Shown piece by piece: positions 19,566 to 56,486 of a stretch of DNA of 64,000 bases. This DNA comes from an uncultured Gammaproteobacteria bacterium (GTDB lineage: Bacteria > Pseudomonadota > Gammaproteobacteria > CAYNNN01), in NCBI GenBank assembly GCA_964398665.1, contig CAYNNN010000005.1, positions 2,025 through 66,024 of the forward strand. Direction: 5' to 3'. Each line of letters begins with the position of its first letter. Positions within the stretch are counted from its first letter, which is position 1. The notes below the pieces were generated by a model that saw only the letters and a program-made list of their open reading frames with translations, ran no database searches and had not been told where the DNA came from. The translations under genes were made by a program, and so were the position numbers.

Positions 19566-20360
19566 TCAGGGCACTGCGGGGGCGAGTAACTGAATCTCCC
19601 AGCCCTGCTGTTGCAGGCGCAGTTGTAAATCCAGGGCCGTAGCCCGATCCGGCAGCGGGCCAACCCGCAGGCGCCACAGCCCGGCCCCGGCAGTCAGGCG
19701 GGCTTGCCAGGGCGGCGGCAATTGCATCTGGAGTTGCGTCTGCAAGGCCGCAGCCCGACCACGGGCACCGAAGGCCCCGGCCTGCAAATACCAGCCGTCA
19801 TCTGCTGCCAGCATCGTGTCAGCGCGTTCCCCCTGCGGAGAGGCCAGCGGTACCACCCCGCTTTCCGGCACGGTCAGGGCCTGCACCTCGACAGCACCCG
19901 TCCCGGTGATGCCCAGCTTGGCGGCGGCCACATAGGACAGATCAATCAGGCGATCTGCGACAAACGGTCCCCGGTCATTGACCCGCACCACCACCGCCTT
20001 GCCGCTCGCCAGGTTGGTCACACGCACATAGGTCGGCAGGGGCAAGGATTTATGTGCAGCCGTCATGCCCAGCATGTCGTAGGGTTCGCCGCTGGAGGTG
20101 GGCTTGCCATGAAACGCCTTGCCATACCAGGAGGCAGTGCCGCGTTCGACATAACCGACGGCACTGGGCATGACTCGATAGGCTTTGCCCCAGACTACAT
20201 AATCCTTGTTGCCGTAACGGCTCAGGGGTTCTGCCTTGGGGACAGCATCGGGGATTGCGGCCAGGTCTATCGGATCACTGGGCGGGCCATCACGCCCGCC
20301 CGACTGCGGTCCGGCACAACCGGCCAGACACACGGCCAACAGGAGGCTAGTGCCCCGCAT
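19566..20360 (-). CDS. rlpA: Septal ring lytic transglycosylase RlpA (lipoprotein, DPBB plus SPOR)
   Basis: Lipobox LAGC, GTASWYG, TAAHKSLPLP, VRVNDRGPF, RLIDLSY, C-terminal LQAGAF SPOR domain. Confidence 0.93.
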   Translation of the reverse strand: MRGTSLLLAVCLAGCAGPQSGGRDGPPSDPIDLAAIPDAVPKAEPLSRYGNKDYVVWGKAYRVMPSAVGYVERGTASWYGKAFHGKPTSSGEPYDMLGMTAAHKSLPLPTYVRVTNLASGKAVVVRVNDRGPFVADRLIDLSYVAAAKLGITGTGAVEVQALTVPESGVVPLASPQGERADTMLAADDGWYLQAGAFGARGRAAALQTQLQMQLPPPWQARLTAGAGLWRLRVGPLPDRATALDLQLRLQQQGWEIQLLAPAVP

Positions 20361-23300
20361 ACTCCAGCGCCTGCAAGGCCACCGTCCCAATCTGGTAGCC
20401 CTGCTGTTGCGCCAGATTGCGGATGAAATCCACCTGCTGCTTGGTCATTTCTCCAAACGAGAAATGTTGCGCGTAACCCGATACGCCCAGCAGGGTGGTC
20501 TCGGCCACGCAACCATAAACATGATCCACCGGTAGCCGGGTACCCTGCAATTTCAGGCCCTGAGCACCCGGCAACCGGGCCAGTCCCCCCGAAAGAATCT
20601 GGATGTGCGGATAGGCGTCAAATACGCTGTTGGCCACGTCCTTGGGCGTGGCAATATCGCAGATCACCACCACGCGCCTGGACAGATGCTGGGGGTAGAT
20701 CACCGGCCGAGCCGAGTTGGTACACGATACGATCACCGGGCAATCGGCCAAGTCAGTCAACTGGTCGGAGAGCTGAACCCAGCGCGCCCCGCCCAGTTCG
20801 GATTCGACCTGGGCGCGCAGGAAGGCCCCGATGGCCTCGGGCGGCGTGGCCTGCTGCATGAGCCGGGCATATGTCTGGGTCGTCGCCAAGGCTGCTGCCA
20901 GCCCGGATACCGGACCGCCGCGCTGCAAGGCCACCCAGGCATCGGCATACAGGGTATCCGCCACTTCACGCAGACCCTCGTCCTGCGCATTGCGACCGAA
21001 CAACCGGATCAGCGGCGAGTATTCAGCCAGGACCCGCGCACAGATCGAGCCAATGTTACCCTTGGCACCCACAACGGCAATAGGTGTTTCAGCCAGGATC
21101 AGGCCCTGGGCCTGTGCTGCACTGAGCGCCCCTTCAATGCCCAATGCAGCGGTGTAGGCATTGCCGGAAGTGAGGGCCAGCCCCGTTTCCGCGACAGCGG
21201 TGCAATTGAGGGTGACGATGGAGGTGTAGCCGCCAAAGCCGACCACCTTGCAACCGTGCTTGTGCGCCAGTTGCACGGCCTCGTCGATCTTGTACAGCAG
21301 CAGCTCGCGCTCTTCGGTGCGCATCATGGCCTCAAACAGCGCCCCGGTCAGCGGCAGGCCGATGATGGACAGATGCACCTGCGCTCCCGTGGCGGTGGTA
21401 ATGCGCATCTGCTGGGCGATGGCAATTTTGGAATACGGGAATAACTGGCGCAACAAAGGTTCGCGCAGGGCTTCCGGCACTTCGGCAAAGGAAGGTTCCA
21501 GTTGCAGCAGGGCGTCCAGATCTTCCAGGTGTCCGATATGCGCCACCCGAGGTTCATCACCGGGGGTCGTGTCGGTGTTAGGCGGCTGGCGGTCGCGCCA
21601 ATCCTGCACCGGCTCGCCTGGGTCGGTCTCGGCACCCACGACATAGCGCAACAACCGCCCGGCATTGGCATGACGGAAGATTTGGCACACATCGGCAAAT
21701 GCCGCAATGACCCGCTCCATTTCAGCCTCGGTAATCAACGCCGAGGGCAGGAAACGAATGGTGTTGCGGGTTTTGGTTGGTGCGATGCGGATTTGCTTGA
21801 CATTGAGCAAATAACCTGCAATCAGCATGTTGACCATTTCCATGCCATGCTGGGCGATCAGGCGCAGCATGAACGAGGGCGAATGTTGCTGGGGCGCCAG
21901 CTCAACACCCAGCATCAGGCCGGCCCCGCGCACTTCACGGATCACATCGGGATAATCCACGGCCAGTTGCCGCAATTTACCCAGAAACAACTGGCCACTG
22001 CGGGCACAGGTGGCCAGGATGTCTTCTTCTTGCAACAATTCCAGGGTACGCAGCGCCATCAGACAGCCCAGACGGTCTTCGGCAAAGGTTGAGCCGTGCA
22101 TATAGCCAAAATCGTCCTGATAACGACGTTCGCTGACCATCATGGCACTGACTTTGGTCAAACCACCGCCCAGACTCTTGGAAAAGGTGTAGTAATCTCC
22201 CCGCAGGCCAGAGAGTTCCGCTGCCGTGAAGGTACCCGTCCGGCCCATGCCGCACTGGATTTCATCCACCACGATGGGAAAACCGTACTCGTCCGCCAAC
22301 TGGCGTGCCGCCTGTAAAAACTCCGGCTTGACCGGGTGCATCCCGCCCTCGCCCTGAATCGGCTCCAGAAACAGGGCAGCGACCGGGTACCAGGGCTTGG
22401 CAGTGAGCGTGACGGCCCCCGCAGCATCCAGGGCAAACAGATAGATGGTCTGGCGCTCCGCCTCAATGGCTGCCTGCAAGGCGCCTGGCTCATGTCGAAT
22501 CCAGCGGGTGCGCAAGCCCATCCAGTGGAAAGGATGGCGGAAATCCGGGGACGCGGTCATGCTCAGGGCGCCGGTGGTCATGCCGTGGAACGCATGGGTC
22601 AGGGCCAGAAACAGCGGTTCCTGAGCCAGCACCTGACCATTGTGCGCCACCACGGCCTGATAGACTGCGGCCAGATCGGCACAGACCACGCCCAGCAGGG
22701 CAGCGGCTTCGGTATACAAGGTCGGCTGCACGGCTACCTGCCCCTTGTGATACTGGTCCAGCATCAGGGCGGCGAGGTTGTCCAGGTATTTTTCCTGCTG
22801 CAAGCCCTTGTTGCGCAGTTCCAGCTTGGCATGTTTGACCGCTGCTTCGACGGCCTCGGTGCCCGTGCTGGCCAAAGTGGCCACAAAGTGCTGCCCGGTC
22901 GCCTGATGCAGGCGCTCCGACAAGGCCCGGCCCAACTTGCCAGCGGCAATATTATTGCTGTGCTGCGCATTGATCGGCACCCCTTCGGCCAACAGCATCT
23001 GCATGTGCTGCACCAGCTCCGGGTGATTGTGACCCAGAATGGTGGAACCATAACCACCAACCATATCGAGGATTTCAACCTCCTGTCCCTGGATTTCGTA
23101 GTACAGATAATTCCCCTGGGCACGGGTATAGTGCTTGTCGGCCCCAATCACGGCGATGCGTCCGGCAATACCCCGACGGGCATAATGGCCATACAGCGCG
23201 GTATCGGGCAGCAATGCGGCTGCATCCGCTGTTGGCAGCGTCACAGTGCCCAGCAACTGGCCGATGCGTTCGGCCAGTTGGGCAATGGTTGGAGTTTCAA

Positions 23301-26300
23301 ACAGGGCACGGATCGGCAGTTCCACACCCAACTTGTCGCGCAGCTCGACGATCAGCCGGACCGCCAATTGTGAATACCCCCCGATTTCAAAGAAGTTTTC
23401 ATCAATGCCGATGTGATCGTTTTTCAGGATGTGCTGCCAGATGGCCAGAATGCGCTGCTCCAGGACATTACGCGGTGCGGCCAGGGCCTGAGGCCGGGTG
23501 GTCGTCACCGCAGGCAGGGCACGCCGGTCCACCTTGCCGTTGGAGGACAACGGTAAATTTTCCAGCAGCATGTAGAACTTCGGCACCATGTAGGCGGGCA
23601 GGCGCGCTTCCAGGTAACTACGCAGCTGGGTCAGGGTGAACTGACTGACCTGCGGCCCGCTGGCCCGGCGCAGGTAATGCACCGAATCCTGCAAGGCAGC
23701 AGCATACTGCGGGCTATGGAACTGCACCCCGCTGCGTTTGCCGCTGCGCCACAGCAGCTGGCTTTCCAGGCGGATAATCTCGCTCCCAATGGGCAGACGT
23801 ACACTGAGCGCAAACCGCTGGCCGGGTACCAGGTCGGCGGGTAAATCCAGTAGCTGTGCCCCGGCAGGCGCCAGACTGAGCAGCAAAGCTTCCGCTTCGC
23901 CCCCATCCCAACGCACCCGGCAGGGTTCCTGAGCGGGCAGACTCACGCTGTCCGGGTCAGCCAGCGGTCCACCCATGACCACACCGGCCTCGCTTTCCAT
24001 GACATAGGCCAGACTACGGCGCAGGTCGGTCAGCGCTGCTTCACCCTCCAGCTGCACGCACAACTGTTTTTGGGCCACCCAAAGAATTTCACCGTGATAT
24101 TCCCCCTGGGCCTCCAGCCCCGGCAAGTGCAGGCGCAGGCGCACATATTGGCGCGAATGCCACTCGCACAATTGCGTAGTCAGGGTCAGCGTCTGGGCCG
24201 AGAGCGCAGTCGCCTGCGCGGCAAACCAGGCCCCGGCATGGTCTTCCAGTTCACAGGCCACGGCGATTTCAGCCCGGGCCAGGTCCAGCAGGGAGACCAC
24301 GTAAGCCACCAGCTGTTTTTCGCCTGCCGCTTCGGTAACGGAAACCACGCATTCCTTGACCGCCGGATGCTGGGACAACACCGCCTCGATTTCGCCCAGT
24401 TCAATCCGGTAGCCCTGGATTTTGACCTGAAAATCTTCCCGGCCCAAAAATTCGATATTGCCGTCGGGCCAATAGCGGCCCAAATCTCCGGTGCGATATA
24501 GACGTTCCCCAGTATGGGGATTGCAGATGAAGCGGGCAGCGGTTTTCTCCGGATCGCGCCAGTAGCCCAGCGCCACCCCTACCCCGCCAATGTACAACTC
24601 ACCGGGCACCCAGGTCGGACAGGGCAAATACTGGCTATCCAGCACGTGGAAAGTCTGATTCACCATCGGGCGGCCATAAGGAATGCTGACCCAGTGCGGC
24701 TCCACCCGGGTTACATGATAGGCGATCGACCAGATCGAGGCTTCGGTGGCCCCACCCAAGCTGAAGAATTGCACCTGCGGAGCCAGCGTCCAGAGCGTGT
24801 CAGGCAGCTTCAGCGGAATCCAGTCGCCACTGAGCATCACCAGCCGCAACGAAGGGGGCAGGCTCAGGCGATGACCCTGGACATACTCCAGCAGGATCTT
24901 CATCAGGGCCGGGGCGGTGTTCCAGACGGTCACCTGATGCCGGACGGCCAGTTCCAGCCAATGGGCCGGATCACGCTGCCGCTGCGGGTCGGGCAGTATC
25001 AAGGCCCCGCCTGCGCCCAGGAGTCCGAAAATGTCGTACACCGACAGGTCAAAGGACAGCGAGGACAGGGCCAGCACCCGGTCGCTGTCCTGGACCCGGA
25101 ACCGGGTATTGACATCCACCACCGTGTTGATGGCACCTTGATGGTCGATCATCACGCCTTTGGGCGTGCCGGTCGAACCCGAGGTGAAGATGGTATAGGC
25201 CAGCGCATCCAGCCGCTGAACCGGCTCCAGCTCATCCCCCAGCTCTGCGGCAAACGGGTGAGCGTCCAGGGCAAAGACCTGCACCGTCTCGGGCCAGGTC
25301 AGCCGGGAAACCACCCAGCTCTGGCTCAGGACAAAGCGGGTATCGGTATGGGCCAGCAGATAATCGATCCGGGTCTGAGGCAGGGCCGGATCGATGGGTA
25401 AATAAGCCCCGCCGGCTTGCAGAATGCCCAGGACGGCGACAATCTGCTCCCAACCTTTTTCCGTGACCACGGCCACCAGTTCACCCGGCACCACCCCGCG
25501 CGCCCGCAAGGCCCGCCCAATCCGGTTGGTCTCCTGCCACAACTCCCCGTAACACCAGGTGCGATCGGCGGCAATCACGGCAATCTGGCTCGGGCGCAGT
25601 CTCGCCTGCAAGCCGACGCCTTCCTGCAACCGCAGGCCCGGTAGCGGCGCAGCCGTGGCATTGACCTGCGCCCGCTGCTCCAGTTGAGCAAGCGGTGTCA
25701 GTTGTGGCAGGGACTGCCAGCGGGCTTCATCCTGAGCCAGCCGGTGCAGGTAAGCCTGATAGGCGGCAAACATTTCATCCAGCAAACCCGCCGGGAACAA
25801 GGCTTCCACCGCATCCCAGCTATAAACCAGGTCAGCGCCGTCTTCCAGCACCTGATGATCCAGCCAGACTTGCGGGGTCTGGGACACGCTGTACACCCGC
25901 TGGCCCAGCCAGTCCACCGCTGAATCTGCCCCGGTCTGTAACCCCAGGGCACTGGTGAACACTACCGGCAGACTGACGTTCTGACGGCCCTCCAGGCGCG
26001 CCCATTCTTGCAGGATGCTCAGGCCATTGACCTGGCGATGCGCCAAATCCTGCCACAACTGCCGCTGTACCCGCTCGGCCCGTTCTTCAAAACTGGCCGC
26101 ATGACGCAAATCCACCGCCAGCGGCAGCAGGGCGGTAAAATCACCGACCAGTTGCTCCACTTCGGGATGGGCCGGAATCCGGTTGAATGTGGTCAGATTC
26201 AGGGTAAAGTGCGGGCGTTTGCTCCAGGTCGCCAGCACACAGGCAAACGCCGTGGCCAGCAACACCGAGGGCGTGAGATTGCCCTGCTGCCCACGCTGTT

Positions 26301-29300
26301 TCAGCGCCTGCCACAGCGGCGCGGCCAAGCGGCCCTGGCGTCGGACAAAGTGAGGCTTGCCTACGGTGGCCGGTGGACGCGCCAGCGGCAGTTCCGGCGC
26401 AGGTGGCAATTCTGCCAGCCGGGCGCGCCAGTATGCCAGCGCCGTCTGGTAGTCTGCCCGGCCCTGCCAGCTCCGCTCGGCCAGCACATAGTCACGAAAG
26501 CTCAGGCCCAGCGGCGCCAGCGCCTGGGTCGGGTTGGCATATAGCTCGCCCCACTGGCGAAACAGCAGTAACAAGCTCCAGACATCTGCAATCAGCAGGT
26601 CGATGCTGACATGCACCCGGGTCAAATCCTCGGGCAGGATGCTGGCACGAATTTCAAACAGCGGCCACAAGGCGGTGTCATAAACCTGATGCGACATCCG
26701 CGTCCGCACCGCTTCCAGGGCGGTGCTGCGTACCGCCCGATCGGCGTGGCGCAGATCGGCCACTGCTATCGCGTAAGGCGCAACTTCCGGCAGCATGCGC
26801 TGCTGGCCGTGGGCGTCCACCACCAGGCGCAAGGCCCCGTGGTGTTGAATCAGACGCTGCCAGGCCGCTTCCAGACGTGCGACATCAAGACCGGCGTGCT
26901 CGAATTCCGCATAAAAATGGCAGGCGACTCCACCCAATTCCAGGCTTTCGACCCGCCCCAGCCAGTAAGCGGTCTGGATTTCGTTGAGCGGAAACGGTTG
27001 CGCCTGCTGCGCCCGATCAGGCTGCAAGGTCAGTGCCTGACGCTCGACACCACTGGCCGCCAGGGCCTGCGCGGCCAACTCCCCTATCGTGGCAGCATTG
27101 CCCAGCAAACTCACCGGCAAGGTCCGGCCCAGATGCTGTTCCAAATCGCCCAGCAGCCGCAGGGCCGTCACTGAATCCACCCCCAGCGCCCCCAGCACGC
27201 TGCTGGCCTGCACCGTTGCAACCGGTACGTGCAGGCGCTCTGCGACTCGGCCCACAAGCCAGGCAGTGAGCTGGCCTGCGGCGGTCTCCAGTGCAGCCTG
27301 CACCGGTTCTGCGTCAGGTCCGGCCGACGTGGCCGGGACATCCCAGGCCCAGGCCAGATCCAACTGGCCCTGAAGATAGTCCTGCCTGGCACGTTGCCGT
27401 TGCACCTTGCCACTGGAAGTCTTGGGCAGGCCGCCAAAATTCAGCAGGACCAGTTGCTGGAGCTGCAATTCATGTTGCTCGGCCACTGCCCGGCGTACCG
27501 CCGTCAGGAGTTCTTCCGGATGTGGGGCCAGGGCGCTGCTGCTATCGCCGACCGCACGAAACTGACGCTTTTTCAAATCGCGCTGATAACGCCGATCCAC
27601 CTCGGCGACCATGATCAGTTGCGGTTCTCCGGCCGCACTGTCCACGGCAAAAGCAATGCTGTTGCCCACACCAATGGGCAGATAGCCACTGCTGCCCACC
27701 AATTCGCGCAGGGTCTCGTCCAGCGTCCATTCCAGATCCTGGGGATAATGATTGCGGCCCCGGATGATCAGCACATCTTTCAGGCGCCCGGTGATGAACA
27801 GCTCCCCGTCATGGATGAAACCCAGATCCCCGGTGCGCATGAACGGCCCTTCCCCGGTATCGCTCAAGTGCGCCCGGAACGTGCGTTCGGTCTCATCCTC
27901 ACGGCCCCAGTAGCCCTGAGCGACATGGCGGCCCTGCACCCAGATTTCCCCCACCCGGTTGCGCGGGGTGCGGGTCCGTTCCTCCGGATCGGCCAGGACA
28001 ACCTGCTCAAACCCCAAGGCACAGCCATTGCCCACAAAAGTCTGGCTCCCGCTGCTCAGGGTCGTCAGCATGACCTTGCCGGCCCGCAAGCCATCAGCCA
28101 CCACACCCTGATGCACTGGCCCCGCGCCCGGTTTACCCCCCGTCACCAGCAAGGTCGCTTCGGCCAGCCCATAGCTGGGATAGAACGCTTCCCGGCTAAA
28201 ACCCAAAGGCGCGTAAGTCTTGGCAAAGCGATCCAGACTCTTGGGATTGACCGGCTCGGCACCGGTGAGCAAAAAGCGCCAGGTCGACAAGTCCAGGCCC
28301 GCCTGGGCAGCCGGGTCTATTTCATCCACACACAGATCAAAGGCAAAATTGGGGGCGATAGAGGCCGTGGCCCGAAACCGGCTCATGGCCGTCAGCCAGC
28401 GCAGCGGTTTTTGCAAAAAGGCAGCCGGGGGCATGAAGATACAGCGCATGCCCCGGTACAATGGGAATAGCAACAGGCCAATCAGGCCCATATCGTGAAA
28501 CAGGGGCAGCCAGCCGCACCCGACATCCTGTTCGGTCAGGCCAAAACCGTCCTCCATCATCCGCAGGTTGGTCAGCAGATTGGTATGACTGACCATCACG
28601 CCCTTGGGCGCCCCGGTTGACCCCGAGGTGTATTGCAGCAAGGCTAGGTCATCACCTTGCAGCCTGGGCATGGCCCAGCGCTCGGCATCCGTCAGGACAA
28701 CCTGATCCGTCACCAGCCAGTGCAGGGCCTTGAGCGCCGGCACTTCATCCAGCATCGGCTCCAGGGTTTGTTGAATGCCACGGGTAGTCAACACGGCCGC
28801 CGGCCGGGCATCCTGAATGATGGCACTGAGGCGGCGCAGATTGCGGTTCCGCCGGGGTGGATAGGCCGGAACGGCGATCACGCCGGCATATAGACAGCCA
28901 AAGAACGCACTGATGAACTCCAGTCCGGAGGGGTAAAACAGCAGGGCACGTTCCCCTGCCAGACCCAGACCCTGCAATTGCGCAGCGATGGCGCGGGCCT
29001 GCTTGTCCAGCAATGCATAATCAATCGGCTGGCCATCCCCCTCACCGTCGGGCAGGAACCGGTAGGCTTCCGCTTCGGGACGCAATTTGGCCCGAGTGCG
29101 CAACACATCCACCAGGGTCTCGTAAGCCAGGCCCTTGTTGCCATACTCAAACAGCATCAGACGGACTTTGGGCAGGAAGCGTTCCTGCGGCGGATACACC
29201 GGCTTGTCGATAAAGGCATCCACCCGCGCCTGGGTGATGGCATTCTTGACCAGTTCCACATCCTGGCCATAAGCCGTCACCAACACCCGTTTGGTGCGCG

Positions 29301-29547
29301 GGTAATGCTCATAGACATGGGCCAGCAATTCGATACCCTGAATGCCGGGCATGCGCTGGTCAGATAGCACCAGGGCTATTTCAGCCGTATCCGTACTCAG
29401 GTAGGTGAGCAGCTCCAGGGCCTCTTCCCCGCTGGCGGCGGTGACGATTTGATAATCCTCAGCGAAATGTTCGGTCAGAATGCGGGCCAAGGATTCCCGC
29501 ACCCCCTCTTCATCGTCCACCAGCACGATATAAGGCTGATTGTCCAC
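20347..29547 (-). CDS. 3066-aa hybrid megasynthetase: REC - FAAL - ACP - Cy - A(Cys, with PilZ-like insert) - PCP - class III aminotransferase - acyl-ACP-reductase-like
   Basis: REC (VLVDD, SDQRMP, VTAY, DKP); FAAL (LQYTSGSTG, WLPLFHDMGL, YGLAEATL); ACP (GVDSV); Cy (FPLNEIQTAY, DLLIAD); A (FDLSVYD, LSGDWIP, GGATEASIWS, GKVDR); PCP (IGGYS); PLP enzyme (VDEIQCGMGRTG, FSKSLGGG); Rossmann reductase (GFGGYTS, TSGN, VVGAKGNIG). Confidence 0.9.
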   Translation of the reverse strand: MDNQPYIVLVDDEEGVRESLARILTEHFAEDYQIVTAASGEEALELLTYLSTDTAEIALVLSDQRMPGIQGIELLAHVYEHYPRTKRVLVTAYGQDVELVKNAITQARVDAFIDKPVYPPQERFLPKVRLMLFEYGNKGLAYETLVDVLRTRAKLRPEAEAYRFLPDGEGDGQPIDYALLDKQARAIAAQLQGLGLAGERALLFYPSGLEFISAFFGCLYAGVIAVPAYPPRRNRNLRRLSAIIQDARPAAVLTTRGIQQTLEPMLDEVPALKALHWLVTDQVVLTDAERWAMPRLQGDDLALLQYTSGSTGAPKGVMVSHTNLLTNLRMMEDGFGLTEQDVGCGWLPLFHDMGLIGLLLFPLYRGMRCIFMPPAAFLQKPLRWLTAMSRFRATASIAPNFAFDLCVDEIDPAAQAGLDLSTWRFLLTGAEPVNPKSLDRFAKTYAPLGFSREAFYPSYGLAEATLLVTGGKPGAGPVHQGVVADGLRAGKVMLTTLSSGSQTFVGNGCALGFEQVVLADPEERTRTPRNRVGEIWVQGRHVAQGYWGREDETERTFRAHLSDTGEGPFMRTGDLGFIHDGELFITGRLKDVLIIRGRNHYPQDLEWTLDETLRELVGSSGYLPIGVGNSIAFAVDSAAGEPQLIMVAEVDRRYQRDLKKRQFRAVGDSSSALAPHPEELLTAVRRAVAEQHELQLQQLVLLNFGGLPKTSSGKVQRQRARQDYLQGQLDLAWAWDVPATSAGPDAEPVQAALETAAGQLTAWLVGRVAERLHVPVATVQASSVLGALGVDSVTALRLLGDLEQHLGRTLPVSLLGNAATIGELAAQALAASGVERQALTLQPDRAQQAQPFPLNEIQTAYWLGRVESLELGGVACHFYAEFEHAGLDVARLEAAWQRLIQHHGALRLVVDAHGQQRMLPEVAPYAIAVADLRHADRAVRSTALEAVRTRMSHQVYDTALWPLFEIRASILPEDLTRVHVSIDLLIADVWSLLLLFRQWGELYANPTQALAPLGLSFRDYVLAERSWQGRADYQTALAYWRARLAELPPAPELPLARPPATVGKPHFVRRQGRLAAPLWQALKQRGQQGNLTPSVLLATAFACVLATWSKRPHFTLNLTTFNRIPAHPEVEQLVGDFTALLPLAVDLRHAASFEERAERVQRQLWQDLAHRQVNGLSILQEWARLEGRQNVSLPVVFTSALGLQTGADSAVDWLGQRVYSVSQTPQVWLDHQVLEDGADLVYSWDAVEALFPAGLLDEMFAAYQAYLHRLAQDEARWQSLPQLTPLAQLEQRAQVNATAAPLPGLRLQEGVGLQARLRPSQIAVIAADRTWCYGELWQETNRIGRALRARGVVPGELVAVVTEKGWEQIVAVLGILQAGGAYLPIDPALPQTRIDYLLAHTDTRFVLSQSWVVSRLTWPETVQVFALDAHPFAAELGDELEPVQRLDALAYTIFTSGSTGTPKGVMIDHQGAINTVVDVNTRFRVQDSDRVLALSSLSFDLSVYDIFGLLGAGGALILPDPQRQRDPAHWLELAVRHQVTVWNTAPALMKILLEYVQGHRLSLPPSLRLVMLSGDWIPLKLPDTLWTLAPQVQFFSLGGATEASIWSIAYHVTRVEPHWVSIPYGRPMVNQTFHVLDSQYLPCPTWVPGELYIGGVGVALGYWRDPEKTAARFICNPHTGERLYRTGDLGRYWPDGNIEFLGREDFQVKIQGYRIELGEIEAVLSQHPAVKECVVSVTEAAGEKQLVAYVVSLLDLARAEIAVACELEDHAGAWFAAQATALSAQTLTLTTQLCEWHSRQYVRLRLHLPGLEAQGEYHGEILWVAQKQLCVQLEGEAALTDLRRSLAYVMESEAGVVMGGPLADPDSVSLPAQEPCRVRWDGGEAEALLLSLAPAGAQLLDLPADLVPGQRFALSVRLPIGSEIIRLESQLLWRSGKRSGVQFHSPQYAAALQDSVHYLRRASGPQVSQFTLTQLRSYLEARLPAYMVPKFYMLLENLPLSSNGKVDRRALPAVTTTRPQALAAPRNVLEQRILAIWQHILKNDHIGIDENFFEIGGYSQLAVRLIVELRDKLGVELPIRALFETPTIAQLAERIGQLLGTVTLPTADAAALLPDTALYGHYARRGIAGRIAVIGADKHYTRAQGNYLYYEIQGQEVEILDMVGGYGSTILGHNHPELVQHMQMLLAEGVPINAQHSNNIAAGKLGRALSERLHQATGQHFVATLASTGTEAVEAAVKHAKLELRNKGLQQEKYLDNLAALMLDQYHKGQVAVQPTLYTEAAALLGVVCADLAAVYQAVVAHNGQVLAQEPLFLALTHAFHGMTTGALSMTASPDFRHPFHWMGLRTRWIRHEPGALQAAIEAERQTIYLFALDAAGAVTLTAKPWYPVAALFLEPIQGEGGMHPVKPEFLQAARQLADEYGFPIVVDEIQCGMGRTGTFTAAELSGLRGDYYTFSKSLGGGLTKVSAMMVSERRYQDDFGYMHGSTFAEDRLGCLMALRTLELLQEEDILATCARSGQLFLGKLRQLAVDYPDVIREVRGAGLMLGVELAPQQHSPSFMLRLIAQHGMEMVNMLIAGYLLNVKQIRIAPTKTRNTIRFLPSALITEAEMERVIAAFADVCQIFRHANAGRLLRYVVGAETDPGEPVQDWRDRQPPNTDTTPGDEPRVAHIGHLEDLDALLQLEPSFAEVPEALREPLLRQLFPYSKIAIAQQMRITTATGAQVHLSIIGLPLTGALFEAMMRTEERELLLYKIDEAVQLAHKHGCKVVGFGGYTSIVTLNCTAVAETGLALTSGNAYTAALGIEGALSAAQAQGLILAETPIAVVGAKGNIGSICARVLAEYSPLIRLFGRNAQDEGLREVADTLYADAWVALQRGGPVSGLAAALATTQTYARLMQQATPPEAIGAFLRAQVESELGGARWVQLSDQLTDLADCPVIVSCTNSARPVIYPQHLSRRVVVICDIATPKDVANSVFDAYPHIQILSGGLARLPGAQGLKLQGTRLPVDHVYGCVAETTLLGVSGYAQHFSFGEMTKQQVDFIRNLAQQQGYQIGTVALQALEYAGH

Positions 29548-29578: not shown

Positions 29579-31081
29579 TCAACGCCCGCCGTGCGCTATC
29601 AGCGGCAAGGTCAGAACAAACCGGGTTTCACCAGGACGAGAACGCACCTGCAGACTGCCCTGATGACCCTCCTCGATGATGCGCTTGGCATCGAACAATC
29701 CCAGCCCCGTGCCCTTCTTGCCGCTTTTGGTCGTGACAAACGGCTTGAAAATTTCCGCCTGCAAGGCGGCCGGAATGCCTTCCTTGCCGTTGTCCAGAAT
29801 TTCTGCGCTGATCTGCCCGGAACCCGCCTGGGTCGTCAGGGTGATTTCCCCCCCTTCCCCAACGGCATCAATGGCATTTTCGATCAAGTAGACAAAGCAG
29901 TACATCAGGTCCACCGGGAACCCCGACAGCGGCGGCAATTCGGCAAATTGCGAGTTGATCTTGATCCCCTTGAGCCGAAAGGACAGCATGTCCAGGGCAC
30001 TGCCAATCACCTGATTCAGGTTGATATGATCGGAGGGTTTGGCACGCTCCGGCTGGGCGGCATTCAGCACCATGAAGATTTCCTTGGAAAGCTGGGTCGC
30101 ATTGCTGCCCGTGTTACGCAACTGCGCCCCCACCTGCACCACCACGCGCACCAGCTCCAGCCAGCGGTCCAGCGGCCCCAGCAATTCCGCCAGCATCTGC
30201 AACTGGGGGGCCGTGAGCAAATGTCTGGCCGCCAGACTGTAATGCTCCCGCTTCAACCCCAGGCCCGCGCCCTGCGCAGCCGCCTGCAACCTGGCAGCCG
30301 CCTGCAGGATTTCCAGCGAAGTCGGCAGACGCTGAACCAGGGCTTGTTCAAATACCGCCTGCAATACTGCCAATCCCGCCTGCAACTCGGTCTCAGTCTG
30401 CGTGCCCAGCCACGGGATACCCGTCGTGAGCAGCCAACGCACATCCTGGGTCAGATTGGGCTGGGCGCTTTCTATCGCCACTGCCGGATTCTTCAACCGG
30501 TGGGACAGGCTGGACAGCAGGCGGCTGGTGATGGTGGCACGTTCACTCTGAATCAGCTTGACCTGCGTTTCCCGCAGGCTGGCCAAGGCCTGGGAAAGTT
30601 CGCTGGTGCGTTTTTCCAGATCACGTTTGTATTGCTGTTCCTTGCGCTGATAGAAATATTTCTCGCAGGCATGTTTGACCTTGAGGCGCATCTCCATTTC
30701 TGGCGCCCCCTTGACGATATAAGACTCAAACCCGTAACTGACGATCTCGGAAATGTTGTGTTCATCATCATGGCCGGTGTGCATGATGATGGGCACGTGC
30801 GGGAATTTGCGCCAGATGCGTCGGGAAGCCTCAAAGCCTGACATGGTGGGCATTTTGGCATCCATCACCACGCAGGCAATGTCGTCAGTCATGCTGTCTA
30901 GGGCTTCCTCGCCGCTGGAGGCCAGGGAGACCTCGTAATCCTGGAAGACCTTGCGCAAAATGGCCAGGGCTGCATCCGAATCATCCACCAGCAGCAACCC
31001 GACCCGTGTTTCACCCTCGGGCAAAAACGCCGCCGCCGCAGGGGCCGGATGTCCTGCTGCGCAAGGCGCTTCAGTTACCAT
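29579..31081 (-). CDS. Hybrid REC-histidine kinase (cytoplasmic)
   Basis: REC LLVDD, VMDAKMP, HTG, VKG; H-box SHRLKNP; N-box LIENAIDA; DNG; FKPFVTTK; GTGLGL. No hydrophobic segment. Confidence 0.88.
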   Translation of the reverse strand: MVTEAPCAAGHPAPAAAAFLPEGETRVGLLLVDDSDAALAILRKVFQDYEVSLASSGEEALDSMTDDIACVVMDAKMPTMSGFEASRRIWRKFPHVPIIMHTGHDDEHNISEIVSYGFESYIVKGAPEMEMRLKVKHACEKYFYQRKEQQYKRDLEKRTSELSQALASLRETQVKLIQSERATITSRLLSSLSHRLKNPAVAIESAQPNLTQDVRWLLTTGIPWLGTQTETELQAGLAVLQAVFEQALVQRLPTSLEILQAAARLQAAAQGAGLGLKREHYSLAARHLLTAPQLQMLAELLGPLDRWLELVRVVVQVGAQLRNTGSNATQLSKEIFMVLNAAQPERAKPSDHINLNQVIGSALDMLSFRLKGIKINSQFAELPPLSGFPVDLMYCFVYLIENAIDAVGEGGEITLTTQAGSGQISAEILDNGKEGIPAALQAEIFKPFVTTKSGKKGTGLGLFDAKRIIEEGHQGSLQVRSRPGETRFVLTLPLIAHGGR

Positions 31082-33864: not shown

Positions 33865-36800
33865 TCAGCCCACCTGGGGTCTGGACAGCCATTTGGCCTG
33901 GGTCGCTTCCAGCCACAGCACCAGAGGTGCCAGCATCAGCATATCCAGGGCCAGTGCCAGAACGAACGTCATGGCCGTCAACATGCCCATATCAGAGTTC
34001 ACGGCGAAACCGGAACTGGCGAGAATCAGGAAGCCCCCGGCCAGAATGATGGAGGTAAATAACATGGATGGCCCGACATGCAGGAAAGTCTCGCGGATGG
34101 CCTGATGAGCGGCCAGACGGCGGCGCCGGGCGGCAGCATAATGGGCCATGAAATGTACGGAGTCATCCACCACGATACCCTGCGTCATGGAAAACACCAC
34201 GGCACTGGCCAAACCGACCTGCCCGACCAGATAACCCCAGATGCCAAAGGCCAGCAAGGCCGGGAAAATATTCGGCACCAGGCTGACCAGCCCCAGGGAA
34301 ATGCTGCGCAAGGCAATCAGCATGATCCCGGATACCAGGAACAGGGCCAGAACGTTGCCGTTGAGCATGCTGTTGATGTTGCGTTCGGATATCTTGGCAA
34401 ACATCAGGGACGGGCTGGCACCTCGGGCGTGCATGATCGGCGGGACATTCTCCTGGAGCCATTCATAAGCGCGCTGCTCCAGGGCAATGAGCTGGGCATT
34501 GCTGACATTGCGCAAGGTGACGGTAAAACGGGTGGCGGACTCATCCAGATTGATCTGGTTATTTAAATCCAGTCCACGGGGCAATGACAGCTTGTACAGC
34601 AGCAGATACTGCGCGGCGGTATTGCGATCTTCGGGAATCCGGGCATAAAACGGGTCGTTATTGTGCATGTTGGCGTTGAGACGCTTCACGATATCCGTGA
34701 TGGCGCTGACGTGCATGACGCCTTCCTGCTTGCGATACCAGGTAGCAAACTGCTCAATCCGGTTGAGATACAAGGGGTCGTTGATTCCACCCGGTTCACC
34801 GGTTTTCAGCGAATACTCAATACTGTCCATGCCGGTGAGATTATCGCGGATGAAATCCGTCTCGACCCGAAACCGGTAGCTGTGGTCAAAGTATTCGACA
34901 AAATTGTCATCCAGGACGATCAGCATGACGCCGGCCGCCACCAGCGGCATCAGGGTCAGGGAACCTACCAGGATGGGCCGCTGACGCCGGATGGTAAAAT
35001 CGGCCCAACGGTTCAATTGCCTGTCCAGCCAGGGCTGCTTGCGCGGATTCCTCGGGGGCCGAAATGGCAGCAACATCATCAGAGCCGGCAGGAACAGCAT
35101 GGAATAAATCAGGGCGTACGCCACGCCGACGGCAACGATGTTGCCCAAATCCCGCAGCGGTGGGGCATCGCTGTAGTTCATGCTGAGAAAACCGATGGCA
35201 TTGGTCAGGGTGGTCAGAAATACCGGCATCAGATTCAGACGCATCGCGGTGATCAGGGCTTCGCGCTTGCTGTCCCCCTGACGCAATTGATGGAAGAATG
35301 CGGTCAGAAAGTGCAGGCTGTCACCCACCGCCACGGTCAGGATGATCGTGGGGGCCGCCGCAGAAGGGGTGGACAAGGCCGCGCCAAACCAGCCAAAAAT
35401 CCCCATCGCACTGAGCGAGGCCGCTGCGATAATCACGCAGATCGCAAGCACACCGGTCACCGAACGCAGCAGCACCCCGGCCAGCAGGACCACAAACAGC
35501 AGCATGACCGGATACAGATGCTCCATATCCCGCAAGGTGGCCTCCAGAAAGGCCGCATCCTGCATCACCATGCCACTCAGATAGATCGGGATGTTAGGAT
35601 ATTTAGCCTGAAACTGACGCACCAGTTGCTGGGAGTATTCGACGATCTGGCGGTTCTCGTCTGTGGATTTGCCCGGCAGTTGCAGGCTGACATTAATCCC
35701 GGTGACATGCCCAGACGGTGAAACCAGCCGATTCAGCAGCAGCGGTTCGGCCAGGGCAATTTTCCGCGCTGTATCAAGTTGCTCCGGGGTGAATTGAGCA
35801 GCACCCGAGGCCAGATCCCGGACGATCAGCTCATCTTCACGGGCCTGGGTATGCTGGAAGTTGGTCACGGAGTCCACCCGACTGGAATAGGGTATCTTCC
35901 AGGCCGCCTCCGTCAGCCACTCTACGGCGGTCAGCGTTTCCTGAGTAAATACATCGCCCTGAGGCGCCTTGACCACAAACAGGGCGTTGTAGTTTTTTGC
36001 ATAGGTATGTTCCAGGGCATCAAAAGCCCGCAATTCGGGGTTGGCGTCGCTGAAATAGACCCGATAATCATCCGTGAAGCCGATGTAATGCAAGCCGGCA
36101 ATGCTGCCCGCACCCAGGGCCAGGGTCAGCAACAAAAATAGCCAGGGATACGCTGTCACCCAGCGGCCCAGCCACTCACCCCAACTGACGCCGGGTATTT
36201 CGGGCACGGGCGTAGTACCGTGCGTGGCCGTGGTCGAACTGCGTTCTGACGCAAGTTCCGATGTTGTCGCAGGTGACGTGGACACAACCGGCGCAGTGTC
36301 GGTTCTGGAGGCTTCGCGTGGCTTGACGGTGGGCAGTACCTGCGGGGTGGCCTCGTTGACCGCCTTTTGCAGCGAAGCTTCAAACTCGCGTTTGACCTGG
36401 ATGAGATTGCGCAGGCGGGCCACCAGTTCCAGCGGACGCACCGGCTTGATCAGATAATCGTTGGCCCCGGCTTCAAAGACGCGCAACAGGGTCTGTTCGT
36501 CCTGGTCGGAAGTGATGACCACGATGGGCAGACGCTGACGTGCCGGGTCAGGCAACTGACGCACGGTCGCAGTCAGCACATCGCCATCCATGTTCCCCTC
36601 CAGTCGCAAATCCGTCAGGATCAGGTCATAGGGTCGCGCCTTGATCGCAGCCAGCGCGCTGAGGGCATCGGTGAAATGCTCCACCGTATAATGCTGTTCC
36701 TTCAGGGCCTTCTGAATGGCATACGCATAAGTGCGGCTGTCTTCCACCAGACAGATCAGACCCTGACTTTCTTGTGCCGCCCGCGTTTGAGACAGGCTGT

Positions 36801-37230
36801 CATAAGTGCGCTTGATCCGCAGCAGATTATTGACACGGGCAATTAATTCCTGGGTATTGGCCGATTTGGCCAGATGGTCGTTGGCACCAGCTTCAAAGAC
36901 CCGCACCAGGGTTTCCCCTTCACGGTCTCCCGTCAGCACCAGAATCGGCAGGCGACGTACCGCATCATCACGGGCCGCGCGTACCATCTTGATCAGGTCA
37001 TCACCCTGCTCGACGCCGGGGGCCAGCCCCAGGTCCGTCACCAGCAGGTCAAAGCGGCTCAGACACAAGGCCGCATAGGCTTCACGGGCATCGGTAAAAT
37101 GTTCAACCGTCAGCCCGAGCATACGCAATGTCTGCGTGATGGCGTAAGCGGCCGTCTTGCTGTCTTCGACCAGGCAAACCCGTCCGCCGGTCTGGGAAGG
37201 TTGCGCAGTCGCATTCCGGGAAGTATTCAT
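33865..37230 (-). CDS. MMPL/RND-family transporter with two N-terminal receiver domains
   Basis: REC1 (LVEDS, VTDL, LTG, LAK) and REC2 (LVEDS, LTDL, ITS, IKP), then a 12-TM MMPL pattern with two periplasmic loops and TM4/TM10 motifs VAVGDSLH and GIVVDDSVH; one open frame. Confidence 0.88.
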   Translation of the reverse strand: MNTSRNATAQPSQTGGRVCLVEDSKTAAYAITQTLRMLGLTVEHFTDAREAYAALCLSRFDLLVTDLGLAPGVEQGDDLIKMVRAARDDAVRRLPILVLTGDREGETLVRVFEAGANDHLAKSANTQELIARVNNLLRIKRTYDSLSQTRAAQESQGLICLVEDSRTYAYAIQKALKEQHYTVEHFTDALSALAAIKARPYDLILTDLRLEGNMDGDVLTATVRQLPDPARQRLPIVVITSDQDEQTLLRVFEAGANDYLIKPVRPLELVARLRNLIQVKREFEASLQKAVNEATPQVLPTVKPREASRTDTAPVVSTSPATTSELASERSSTTATHGTTPVPEIPGVSWGEWLGRWVTAYPWLFLLLTLALGAGSIAGLHYIGFTDDYRVYFSDANPELRAFDALEHTYAKNYNALFVVKAPQGDVFTQETLTAVEWLTEAAWKIPYSSRVDSVTNFQHTQAREDELIVRDLASGAAQFTPEQLDTARKIALAEPLLLNRLVSPSGHVTGINVSLQLPGKSTDENRQIVEYSQQLVRQFQAKYPNIPIYLSGMVMQDAAFLEATLRDMEHLYPVMLLFVVLLAGVLLRSVTGVLAICVIIAAASLSAMGIFGWFGAALSTPSAAAPTIILTVAVGDSLHFLTAFFHQLRQGDSKREALITAMRLNLMPVFLTTLTNAIGFLSMNYSDAPPLRDLGNIVAVGVAYALIYSMLFLPALMMLLPFRPPRNPRKQPWLDRQLNRWADFTIRRQRPILVGSLTLMPLVAAGVMLIVLDDNFVEYFDHSYRFRVETDFIRDNLTGMDSIEYSLKTGEPGGINDPLYLNRIEQFATWYRKQEGVMHVSAITDIVKRLNANMHNNDPFYARIPEDRNTAAQYLLLYKLSLPRGLDLNNQINLDESATRFTVTLRNVSNAQLIALEQRAYEWLQENVPPIMHARGASPSLMFAKISERNINSMLNGNVLALFLVSGIMLIALRSISLGLVSLVPNIFPALLAFGIWGYLVGQVGLASAVVFSMTQGIVVDDSVHFMAHYAAARRRRLAAHQAIRETFLHVGPSMLFTSIILAGGFLILASSGFAVNSDMGMLTAMTFVLALALDMLMLAPLVLWLEATQAKWLSRPQVG

Positions 37231-37323: not shown

Positions 37324-38016
37324 TTATACTGTATCATAAAAACAACAAGGCCAGGATTGACGGGACAGGGATACGCTGGCGACCTCAGTCCCCTGCACCG
37401 CCACAGCCCCCGCGTAGCCCGGTGGCATATCCAGCGTGTGCAGGGTCCAGGGCTGCACCTGACCGGCGCTATCCGCCTGGACACAGGTAAACCCGGTACC
37501 GGGTCGGTGCAGGGGCCACGTCAGTCGGGACTCGACTCCGGCCCAACCCACGCCCGCCGCTTTCAACAGCGCTTCATGCCAACACCAATACTGGTAAAAA
37601 GCATGCCGGTCCGGTGGCAGCGTCTCGGGCATCCACAAGCGCCGTGCCAACGGCAACCAGTCCAGCTGCCCATCGACCATTTCCACATCCACACCCACCG
37701 CCCGATCCGGGCTGACTGCGGCCAGCAGCACTGCCCCGGCATGGGATACATTGAAATGCAGCGCCTGCGGACTGGCCAGACCCGGTTTGCCATAAGGCCC
37801 ATACACCAGCGGCACGTCCTGCGGGGCACAGTGCAGATAACCTGCCAGCAAATGTCGCACGTAGGCCCGTGCCACCGCATAGCGCCACTGGTCGGAGGCC
37901 CGGCGCAGCCGCGCCAGATGCAGCCGTTCCGCAGGCACCAGCCAGGGCCAGGCCCAGGCAGCCTGATCGGCGGTATAAGCCAGCGTGGCCAGCCAAAGCT
38001 GCACAGTGGCCATCAC
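37324..38016 (-). CDS. Sfp-type 4'-phosphopantetheinyl transferase
   Basis: YGKP, FNVSHAG, VGVDVE, YWCWHEALLKAAGVG. Confidence 0.9.
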   Translation of the reverse strand: MMATVQLWLATLAYTADQAAWAWPWLVPAERLHLARLRRASDQWRYAVARAYVRHLLAGYLHCAPQDVPLVYGPYGKPGLASPQALHFNVSHAGAVLLAAVSPDRAVGVDVEMVDGQLDWLPLARRLWMPETLPPDRHAFYQYWCWHEALLKAAGVGWAGVESRLTWPLHRPGTGFTCVQADSAGQVQPWTLHTLDMPPGYAGAVAVQGTEVASVSLSRQSWPCCFYDTV

Positions 38017-38753
38017 AGGGTGGCCAGTTCGGCACGCAGGGCGGCCAGCACCGCCGCCTCTGAATCATGGAGGAAAAAATGCCCTCCGGCAAATCGACGC
38101 ATTTGCAACGGCATCTGGGTTTGTACCTGCCAGGCCGCCAATTCTGCCCCGGTCACCTTGGGGTCAGTTTCCCCGCCCCAGGCGGTGATGGGTATTGCCA
38201 GCGGGGGTTCGGCACGATAGCCGTAGGTCTCACATAGGGCAAAATCGGCCCGCAGCATGGGCAACAGCAACTGCATCAGTTCGGCGTTGGCCAGCACGGC
38301 CTCCGGTGTCCCGGCCTGGGCGCGCAAATCGGCGATGAACTCTGCATCCGGCCAGGCGTGAACCATCGGGGTACGTTGGGGCAGTTGCGGGGCACGCTGG
38401 CCCGAGACGATCAGCTTGAGCATCTGGGTGTGGCGCAGACGACGCAGGTAACGGGCCACCTCGAAGGCAACAAAAGCCCCCAGGCTATGACCATAAAATA
38501 CCAACGGTCCCAAAGGCAGTAGTGCCGTTGCCAACGGGGCCACCACCCGCTCCAGCTGCCGCACGGGCAATTCCGTCAGGCGTCCCCCCCGGCCCGGCAA
38601 TTGCACCACCCGCATTTCCACATCGGCAGGCAACTGCGCTTGCCAGGTGACAAAGGCACTCGGCCCACCGCCGGCATAGGGAAACACGATCAGGCGCAGG
38701 CGCGGTCTGGGCAAGGCCTGACCCACCAGCCAGCGGGACTGGGTCGTGCTCAT
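38013..38753 (-). CDS. Type II thioesterase
   Basis: FPYAGG, QLPGRG, GHSLG nucleophile, LRADF, GGHFF. Confidence 0.92.
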   Translation of the reverse strand: MSTTQSRWLVGQALPRPRLRLIVFPYAGGGPSAFVTWQAQLPADVEMRVVQLPGRGGRLTELPVRQLERVVAPLATALLPLGPLVFYGHSLGAFVAFEVARYLRRLRHTQMLKLIVSGQRAPQLPQRTPMVHAWPDAEFIADLRAQAGTPEAVLANAELMQLLLPMLRADFALCETYGYRAEPPLAIPITAWGGETDPKVTGAELAAWQVQTQMPLQMRRFAGGHFFLHDSEAAVLAALRAELATL

Positions 38754-39373
38754 CGCTCTGACCGCGTTTCAGCAAACAAACCCAGCAGCATGGCCTGCTG
38801 CACCAGCTCGGCAACGGAACTGGCCTGCATTTTGTGCATCACCCGTCCCCGATGCACTTCCACCGTCTTGGCACTGACGTTGATGCGCTCGGCCATCTCC
38901 CGATTGCTCAAACCCTGACAAACCAGCTGCATGATCGTCACTTCACGTTCCGTCAGCTCCGCATGGCGTTCTGCCAGCACCTGCCGTTGTACTACCGACT
39001 CCCGCAGGCTGGCATCCCGATGCAGGGCTGCTGCCACGCGCGCCAGCAATTGTGCGGAATTGGCCGGCTTTTGCAAAAAATCGAAGGCACCTTGTTTCAT
39101 CAACTCGACTGCCACCGGCACATCGCCATGCCCGGTCAGAAAAATGACTGGTAACGTATAACCGGCAGCCTGCAAACGTTGTTGCACCTGCTGGCCATCG
39201 AATTCCGGCATCCGCAAATCCAGAACCAGGCAACCGGCGGCTGTGGGGGGCACAGCCGCCAGAAAGGCGACTCCACCCGGAAAGGCCAGGGCCGTGAAGC
39301 CGGAGGATTCCAGCAAGAAACACAGCGAGCTTCTTACTTCAGGCTCATCATCAATAACATATACTGTAGCCAC
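38750..39373 (-). CDS. FixJ/TtrR-type REC-LuxR response regulator
   Basis: YVIDDE, LDLRMP, LTGHG, LQKP, LTERE, KTVEVHR. Start taken at GTG 39373. Confidence 0.9.
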   Translation of the reverse strand: MATVYVIDDEPEVRSSLCFLLESSGFTALAFPGGVAFLAAVPPTAAGCLVLDLRMPEFDGQQVQQRLQAAGYTLPVIFLTGHGDVPVAVELMKQGAFDFLQKPANSAQLLARVAAALHRDASLRESVVQRQVLAERHAELTEREVTIMQLVCQGLSNREMAERINVSAKTVEVHRGRVMHKMQASSVAELVQQAMLLGLFAETRSER

Positions 39374-39386
39374 GGTCGGATTAGCC

Positions 39387-39824
39387 CTATTGCCAGCGTG
39401 CCATCGCCGCGCCATCACCTGACCGGGGTTCCAGCCAGGTCCGGCCCTCGGCCGTGATGGCCTGTTTCCAGAAGGGCGCCTCGGTTTTCAACGCATCCAC
39501 AAGGAACTCGCAGGCCGCAAAGGCTTCCGCCCGATGCACCGCACTCACCCCCACCCAGACGATCGGCGCTCCCACGGCCAGGGTCCCCACCCGATGAATC
39601 AGCCGAACGGCCAGTAATGGCCAACGCTGCCGGGCCGCAGCAACCAATTGTTCCAAAGCTTGTTCGGTCATGGGTGAGTAATGCGCCAGATGCAGCGCCT
39701 GCACGGGCGGGTGGCCATCCGCCCGCACCACGCCGACAAAGCTGGCCACTGCACCCCCGCCGGTTTGCAGCAGGGCCTGCCATTCTGCATTCAGATCAAA
39801 CGGCTCTGTCTGAACACGCACCAT
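39387..39824 (-). CDS. moaE: Molybdopterin synthase catalytic subunit
   Basis: SFVGVVR, IHRVGTL, HRAEAFAACEFLVDALKTEAPFWK. Confidence 0.92.
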   Translation of the reverse strand: MVRVQTEPFDLNAEWQALLQTGGGAVASFVGVVRADGHPPVQALHLAHYSPMTEQALEQLVAAARQRWPLLAVRLIHRVGTLAVGAPIVWVGVSAVHRAEAFAACEFLVDALKTEAPFWKQAITAEGRTWLEPRSGDGAAMARWQ

Positions 39825-55197: not shown

Positions 55198-55206
55198 CCG
55201 GCCCCC

Positions 55207-56190: not shown

Positions 56191-56486
56191 AATAATTCCC
56201 CCACACTCCAAATAGCTTAGTCGCTTTGGGCGTAGTTGCAAGCCAGGGTGGACCGGTCATCATGCCGCGTGGCGGCCCGATTCCAGGGCCAGACACCACC
56301 CGGGATGGTGGCGGCCACAGCCAACGCACCGCAAGGCACGCGGGCGGGGCTACGCCGGGACTTGGCATAACCGGCAGCCGGGTGGTCAGCCGGGGCGCAT
56401 CTCACGTCCCCCGTGTTGACTTGATGGTCACCCTGAGTCAGGCAGGCGGGCACCTCCAGGATCGGGGGACTTGCTGCCGGTCCGGC

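Follow-up and report, generated by a model that had tools for sequence, protein, structure and literature searches.

The PilZ barrel normally serves as a sensor of c-di-GMP (cyclic di-GMP). In c-di-GMP receptors of the YcgR type, the ligand binds an RxxxR motif in the linker together with a motif on the barrel and clamps two barrels. When the motif arginines are mutated, YcgR, Alg44 and BcsA no longer bind c-di-GMP. Other PilZ proteins, including the eponymous PilZ of Pseudomonas and Xanthomonas and PlzA and PlzE of V. cholerae, do not bind c-di-GMP and act through protein contacts. The C-terminal subdomain (A_sub) of the adenylation (A) domain of nonribosomal peptide synthetases (NRPSs) is mobile, with a rotation of about 140 degrees from the adenylation to the thiolation state. 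To our knowledge, nearly all known control of NRPSs acts on transcription. Some A domains carry ketoreductase or oxidase inserts. Interruption between core motifs a8 and a9, the site at which embedded methyltransferases sit, is known from families 1, 2 and 5 of Lundy, Mori and Garneau-Tsodikova (2020; PMC8341866), for example from TioS (A8-M-A9; 5WMM). The seven interrupted-A-domain families in that catalogue all contain methyltransferases, and it mentions neither PilZ nor c-di-GMP (PMC8341866). Here we analyse a 64,000-nucleotide stretch of DNA from an uncultured gammaproteobacterium of wastewater sludge (contig CAYNNN010000005.1, positions 2,025 to 66,024 of the forward strand; "the window" means this whole stretch). 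On its minus strand the window encodes a synthetase with a module of heterocyclisation (Cy), adenylation and peptidyl carrier protein (PCP) domains, and in this Cy-A-PCP module the mobile A_sub is interrupted by a genuine tandem PilZ module. Of the PilZ identity of the insert together with the loss of its motifs we are nearly certain. We think it probable, with some reserve, that the insert is a c-di-GMP-blind PilZ pair that has kept its fold and is retained as a structural or docking module.

A tandem PilZ module between a8 and a9

The insert comprises 222 aa (aa 1752-1973, window 23629-24294) between core motifs a8 and a9, bounded by QLVAYVV (last residue aa 1751) and QLRSYLEARLPAYMVP (first residue aa 1974). 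An earlier note on the window had placed it between these same two motifs, which holds, and at 23650-24290, which falls slightly short at both ends. Its estimate of about 213 aa is too small for the distance between the bounding motifs and fits as a net gain: a8 and a10 lie 300 aa apart here and 88-90 aa apart in the uninterrupted A domains of relatives, a gain of about 210 aa. The sequence strings that it quoted from the insert (VRLRLHLPG, YHGEILWV, LCVQL, FALSVRLPIG, LESQLLWR, SGVQF, ALSAQT and SLAPAG) are all present. The synthetase gene and the parts of its A-PCP region are as follows.

20347..29547, minus strand: whole synthetase gene, 3066 aa (open reading frame list and translation, Pfam/NCBIfam, PDB sequence search of the C-terminus)
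24295..25608, minus strand: A domain up to and including a8, aa 1314-1751 (Pfam AMP-binding, 491 bits; TIGR01733, 573 bits)
23968..24294, minus strand: PilZ unit 1, six-stranded barrel with C-terminal helix, aa 1752-1860 (AlphaFold2 [AF2] model, Foldseek, Pfam scores of relatives)
23629..23967, minus strand: PilZ unit 2, six-stranded barrel with a helix that continues into the a9 helix, aa 1861-1973 (PF07238, AF2 model)
23503..23628, minus strand: remainder of A_sub, with a9 (LPAYMVP) and a10 (NGKVDR, catalytic Lys) (positions verified; aligned to relatives and to solved A domains)
23263..23457, minus strand: PCP with attachment site GGYS, aa 2031-2095 (Pfam PP-binding)

Around the insert, motifs a2 to a8 of the A domain are intact (LQAGGAYLPIDP, FTSGSTGTPKG, FDLSVYD, SLGGATE, GELYIGGVGVALGYW, YRTGDLG and GREDFQVKIQGYRIELGEIE; motif positions verified), and the a2-a10 core motifs are all present and normal, the a10 lysine included. 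Judged by these motifs, the A domain is catalytically intact, and its pocket residues, which by eye are close to the Cys code, mark it as Cys-type. With its core motifs kept and its insert between a8 and a9, it belongs to the a8-a9 type of interrupted A domain. The insert falls outside the catalytic tailoring domains (methyltransferase, ketoreductase or oxidase).

The insert is neither an assembly artefact nor a chimera, because over 23300-24700 the window is identical to a 27.6-kb contig of another sludge study, and shorter identical pieces of this interval occur in three more metagenome runs (four runs compared in all). Contigs of the four runs hold no variants within the insert. The few variants found all lie in the PCP-side flank of one run, which represents a strain variant with five differences over 23300-23587. 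Recent horizontal insertion is ruled out by the equal G+C content at third codon positions of insert (0.72) and gene (0.73). Peptides from the insert gave only generic a7-a8 matches to ordinary A domains in 185,579 species genomes, among which the window's own genome was not recovered either, and the window's protein is absent from the contig collection by exact look-up. A search for RNA runs came back empty. Two runs (X7 and X8), labelled hot springs and soil metagenome, hold identical fragments of the gene (word share 0.25); these fragments could reflect cross-sample carry-over or a broader habitat.

PF07238 (PilZ) matches the whole insert with 29.7 bits (E 8e-7) and unit 2 alone with 24.4 bits, above the gathering cut-off of 22.5; the whole-insert match falls on unit 2. 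It is the sole Pfam match of the insert at E <= 10, with no methyltransferase or other family appearing, which rules out a methyltransferase at this site, as the earlier note had argued. Unit 1 alone has no Pfam match even at E <= 10, and from the sequence of this protein alone only unit 2 can be called demonstrably PilZ. Homology extends the assignment to unit 1, the more diverged of the two, which aligns with its counterpart in nine relatives, where that unit reaches 30-45 bits on PF07238. The claim that the insert forms two similar units is borne out for the family, in which profiles of unit 1 and unit 2 built from 13 members match each other with 99.9% probability (E 4.9e-32, 102 columns). 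Within this protein the two show hardly any similarity (BLASTP, 24% over 38 aa, E 0.11, not significant). Against PDB chain sequences the insert has chance-level matches alone; the best of these, to herpesvirus processivity factors (E 0.26), were dismissed.

Structure prediction followed by Foldseek places both barrels in the PilZ fold, in agreement with the PilZ-like barrels proposed earlier. In an AF2 model of aa 1686-2015 (A_sub plus insert), with a mean predicted local confidence (pLDDT) of 79.7, DSSP assigns six strands and a helix to each unit. Unit 2 reaches a pLDDT of 82-94 in this two-unit model, and the inter-barrel linker has low pLDDT at model residues 169-182. The top PDB matches of the model are the two-barrel proteins MotI/DgrA (5vx6), PlzA (7mie), VCA0042 (2rde), YcgR (5y6f) and MrkH (5kgo), over 223-245 columns. 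The next-ranked are A-domain structures, including TioS (5WMM), matched through the A_sub flanks. Unit 1 modelled alone has a pLDDT of 90.9 and a predicted TM-score (pTM) of 0.81. Its best 42 PDB matches are all PilZ (BcsA, MotI, Alg44, MapZ, YcgR and others; TM 0.55-0.76), for example Alg44 (4rt0; TM 0.70, rmsd 2.8), and matches beyond these fall to low probability. On these models, both units are predicted to take the PilZ fold.

Relatives of the insert and the c-di-GMP motifs

Searches of large protein collections found 39 further synthetases, most of them from cyanobacteria, in which a PilZ pair occupies this site, and all 39 can be aligned with the window copy across the whole A_sub and insert. 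Their source annotation is simply "amino acid adenylation domain-containing protein" or similar, and the named hosts are Oscillatoria princeps, Allocoleopsis franciscana PCC 7113, and Symploca and Coleofasciculus genome bins. The A. franciscana protein (P0026), with the order A(PilZ-PilZ)-PCP-R, is a canonical relative. A single PilZ sits at a8-a9 in at least two more proteins (P0008, a 171 aa fragment, and P0011, 744 aa, with an a8-a10 distance of 193 aa). Duplication in place may have produced the tandem form, or loss the single form. These proteins and the window copy are members of a rare family of NRPS and polyketide synthase (PKS)-NRPS A domains with one or two PilZ domains at a8-a9. Full-text literature searches turned up no publication that connects PilZ with adenylation domains or peptide synthetases, a scope that leaves subscription journals largely outside, and the group is apparently undescribed.

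Some members of the family differ in the state of their A domain. In three proteins of a PKS-NRPS hybrid clade (P0005, P0013 and P0016), the PilZ pair sits in A domains with eroded-looking core motifs: the a3 region is atypical, and a10 reads, for example, PDGEINH, PDGKINT or PDGRVNT. By their motifs these A domains may be inactive and kept for another reason.

We compared the motif columns of the 39 tandem relatives with the window copy.

Unit 1, D/N position: D in 36, N in 3; A in the window copy
Unit 1, Ser position: S in 39; S in the window copy
Unit 1, Gly position: G in 38, S in 1; T in the window copy
Unit 1, single conserved Arg: R in 39 (full RxxxR in only 2); R in the window copy
Unit 2, D/N position: N in 31, D in 4, E in 2, Q in 1, S in 1; S in the window copy
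Unit 2, Ser position: S in 32, G in 7; A in the window copy
Unit 2, Gly position: G in 39; G in the window copy
Unit 2, second Arg of RxxxR: R in 39 of 39; S in the window copy
Unit 2, full RxxxR (usually RRxxxR, on the inter-barrel linker): 30 of 39; absent in the window copy

The corresponding features of the window are:

24190..24207, minus strand: unit 1 remnant of D/NxSxxG, ALSAQT, aa 1781-1786 (Asp to Ala, Gly to Thr, Ser kept)
23860..23877, minus strand: unit 2 remnant of D/NxSxxG, SLAPAG, aa 1891-1896 (Asn/Asp to Ser, Ser to Ala, Gly kept)
23923..23973, minus strand: inter-barrel linker GGPLADPDSVSLPAQEP, without Arg and acidic (RRxxxR in relatives)

ALSAQT and SLAPAG align exactly to the DxSxxG positions of the relatives. 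The earlier note had called RxxxR and DxSxxG degenerate, and measured against the 39 relatives both are indeed lost. Neither unit of the window copy contains (D/N)xSxxG or RxxxR: unit 1 retains a single arginine (LARAE) and unit 2 none (DPDSVSLP). Among the 40 sequences, the window copy alone is without the invariant arginine of unit 2, the Asp/Asn of unit 1, and the Ser or Gly found at the unit 2 serine position. The glycine of unit 1 is missing in two of the 40, the window copy being one of them. As far as motifs can tell, the window copy is the sole family member that lacks key motif residues in both units while its A domain is intact.

The loss of these residues suggests that canonical c-di-GMP binding has most likely been lost in the window copy. 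In a tree of the inserts, the window copy groups with P0014 and P0009; in P0009 (1321 aa) the PilZ-bearing A domain also comes after a Cy domain. Measured against its A_sub flanks, the window insert has diverged further than any other of the 40, with the lowest insert-to-flank identity ratio (0.38; others 0.44-0.73), in a comparison without phylogenetic correction.

Gene context and the fate of the PilZ pair

The synthetase is composed of a receiver (REC) domain, a fatty acyl-AMP ligase (FAAL), an acyl carrier protein (ACP), Cy, A (with the PilZ pair inside), PCP, a class III aminotransferase and an acyl-ACP-reductase-like domain. Pfam and NCBIfam place REC at aa 7-119, FAAL at aa 143-730 with the carrier protein next, a condensation-family domain at aa 851-1192, and the class III aminotransferase at aa 2140-2619, with a Rossmann domain at the C-terminus. 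From its signatures FPLNEIQTAYWLGR and DLLIAD, we take the condensation-family domain to be of the heterocyclisation type. The region after the PCP (20350-23130, minus strand) contains the aminotransferase followed by the acyl-ACP-reductase-like domain. PDB sequence matches of the C-terminus include 6jzq (long-chain acyl-ACP reductase, E 8e-13) and 4ppm (annotated "Aminotransferase", E 4e-16), and the NCBIfam model PigE matches the C-terminal region with E 1e-76. By these matches, the C-terminal pair looks like a PigE-type unit (reductive release, then transamination) with its domain order reversed. The REC at the N-terminus (29191-29529, minus strand; Response_reg, 60.8 bits, Pfam) is apparently intact, with a DD pair, the acceptor Asp in LSDQRMPG, Thr in VLVTAYG and Lys in IDKP. 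A FAAL-NRPS with a fused REC is unusual, and the window member combines this N-terminal REC with the PilZ pair.

The operon around the synthetase encodes REC-LuxR, a type II thioesterase, a phosphopantetheinyl transferase, REC-REC-MMPL, a LolA-like protein, a putative barrel protein, a REC-histidine kinase and the REC-fused synthetase. A second, paralogous MMPL operon lies farther upstream. Neighbouring genes include:

29579-31081, minus strand: REC-histidine kinase gene, directly upstream, ending 31 nt before the synthetase gene
33865-37230, minus strand: MMPL/RND-type transporter of the synthetase operon with two REC domains ahead (Pfam Response_reg twice, MMPL, Patched/sterol-sensing)
37324-39418, minus strand: phosphopantetheinyl transferase, type II thioesterase and REC-LuxR (GerE) regulator, upstream in the same direction
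47765-56241, minus strand: second MMPL operon (LolA-like, DUF1302 barrel, MMPL-histidine kinase, REC-PAS-GGDEF-EAL)
49926-53282, minus strand: MMPL domain fused to histidine kinase, second operon
47765-49936, minus strand: REC-PAS-GGDEF-EAL gene, second operon, 18 kb from the synthetase

With its own phosphopantetheinyl transferase, type II thioesterase and REC-LuxR regulator, the cluster looks self-contained. The REC-PAS-GGDEF-EAL gene is the sole c-di-GMP enzyme gene among the window genes scanned, and no c-di-GMP enzymes were found in the immediate neighbourhood of three relatives. Gene neighbourhood argues neither for nor against c-di-GMP as the ligand. Beyond the second operon, an open reading frame at 56487-57671 (minus strand) resembles by eye a type III CRISPR RAMP (Cmr6-like) with a long, charged C-terminal tail.

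The window copy probably descends from a built-in switch, apparently undescribed, and has probably become blind to its signal. Like receptors of the YcgR/MotI type, most relatives have D/NxSxxG on their barrels and RRxxxR in the linker that joins them. From this placement we infer that the ancestral role was a c-di-GMP clamp on A_sub, in which the ligand would fasten the two barrels to each other and alter the freedom of A_sub to rotate. In the window copy, replacement of both unit 2 arginines and of key motif residues in both units, with an acidic linker, would have abolished canonical binding. The PilZ fold would persist because the pair is structurally integrated in A_sub, and the pair could now be a scaffold or docking surface. 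Since the operon is full of REC domains (the fused REC, the neighbouring REC-kinase, REC-LuxR and the REC-REC-MMPL exporter), control of the pathway may have shifted to the surrounding phosphorelay.

Several points weigh against a pair retained without its ligand. Motif loss would predict the loss of canonical binding alone. P0014 and P0009, the nearest relatives, already have a weakened unit 2 RxxxR, and the clade of these two and the window copy may use the pair differently, which is not the same as zero use. A fold predicted with high confidence to be kept also fits some retained function. The models were built on alignments of only 13-14 sequences, canonical PilZ relatives among them, and the inter-domain arrangement is uncertain (pTM 0.50). 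No close ortholog of the synthetase was found among the species genomes and metagenome contigs searched. Lastly, a link to c-di-GMP may run through the REC-PAS-GGDEF-EAL gene 18 kb away.

The pair may have been repurposed as an active surface for protein-protein or inter-domain docking, an explanation that overlaps with ours and that we regard as rather unlikely. Candidate partners are the protein's own N-terminal REC, the neighbouring REC-kinase and the exporter. The first of these is on the same polypeptide and the gene for the second ends just upstream. The fold has been kept despite fast sequence change, and PilZ proteins without the motifs, such as the eponymous PilZ, work through protein contacts; however, with close orthologs missing, a conserved surface is not definable.

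Alternatively, the pair could still sense c-di-GMP or another nucleotide at a non-canonical site and gate the A domain as presumed for the relatives. This we consider unlikely. The linker is net acidic and lacks both motif arginines, mutation of these arginines removes binding in YcgR, Alg44 and BcsA, and the window copy is the lone outlier at invariant or nearly invariant motif columns of the 39 relatives. Such sensing would nevertheless be consistent with the wholly kept fold of both units, with the survival of the unit 2 motif glycine and the unit 1 serine, and with the absence of a canonical unit 2 RxxxR from P0014 and P0009 as well. The REC-PAS-GGDEF-EAL enzyme in the paralogous MMPL operon could supply a signal of this kind. 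Because the relatives keep their motifs, we judge lost binding to be likelier than non-canonical binding.

We also speculate, as a long shot, that PilZ-interrupted A domains are c-di-GMP gates on peptide assembly lines and that here, in a natural escape variant whose gate has lost its ligand, the vestigial pair docks the fused, phosphorylatable REC that controls the movement of A_sub. Lastly, that the insert is not PilZ at all, and is a chance beta-rich stretch or an assembly chimera, is refuted: unit 1 has no Pfam match, the best PDB sequence match is at chance level and the repeat is not significant within the protein, but unit 2 scores above the Pfam threshold, the full-length insert aligns to 39 PilZ-bearing relatives, the fold matches are exclusively PilZ and an independent contig is identical.

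If a receptor-type domain in the moving lid of the A domain acts as postulated for the relatives, substrate loading would be under direct post-translational control by a second messenger. Given its motif loss, the window member itself probably cannot show c-di-GMP control. It suggests that an A domain intact in other respects can keep the PilZ fold once the ligand-binding residues are lost, and it could serve as a natural loss-of-binding (negative) control in assays on canonical relatives. A synthetase with a REC, in a receiver-crowded operon, makes the idea of a swapped regulatory input directly testable. If docking to REC is correct, the assembly line would be switched post-translationally by a two-component phosphorelay and not by a second messenger.

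Comparison with known systems

The nearest published kind is the a8-a9 interrupted A domain, from which the window copy departs in that its insert is not a tailoring enzyme. As in TioS, a foreign domain has been spliced into A_sub between a8 and a9 and the A motifs are intact. However, the inserts of the TioS type are catalytic, whereas the insert here is a non-catalytic receptor-type fold, present twice.

The tandem two-barrel fold is shared with YcgR (5Y6F), MotI/DgrA (5VX6), PlzA (7MIE), VCA0042/PlzD (2RDE) and MrkH (5KGO), and the relatives of the window copy also share with these receptors the placement of RRxxxR in the inter-barrel linker. In contrast to the receptors, the N-terminal barrel of the relatives is a true PF07238 domain with its own DxSxxG and is not PilZN/YcgR_N. 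The TM-score over both barrels is low (0.27-0.41), because the orientation between the barrels differs. These receptors are free-standing, whereas the pair in the window is embedded in an enzyme domain and its binding motifs are lost.

BcsA (4P00, 9FP0) and Alg44 (4RT0) resemble unit 1 in their single-barrel fold (TM 0.64-0.70) and share the concept of a PilZ domain built into a biosynthetic machine for post-translational gating. Their PilZ domains keep intact motifs and are fused to polysaccharide synthases at the C- or N-terminus, whereas here the insertion is internal to a peptide-synthetase domain and the motifs are degenerate. Similarly, the PilZ proteins that do not bind c-di-GMP have the PilZ fold with RxxxR and D/NxSxxG lost. 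Those proteins are small and free-standing, whereas the pair in the window is built into the synthetase.

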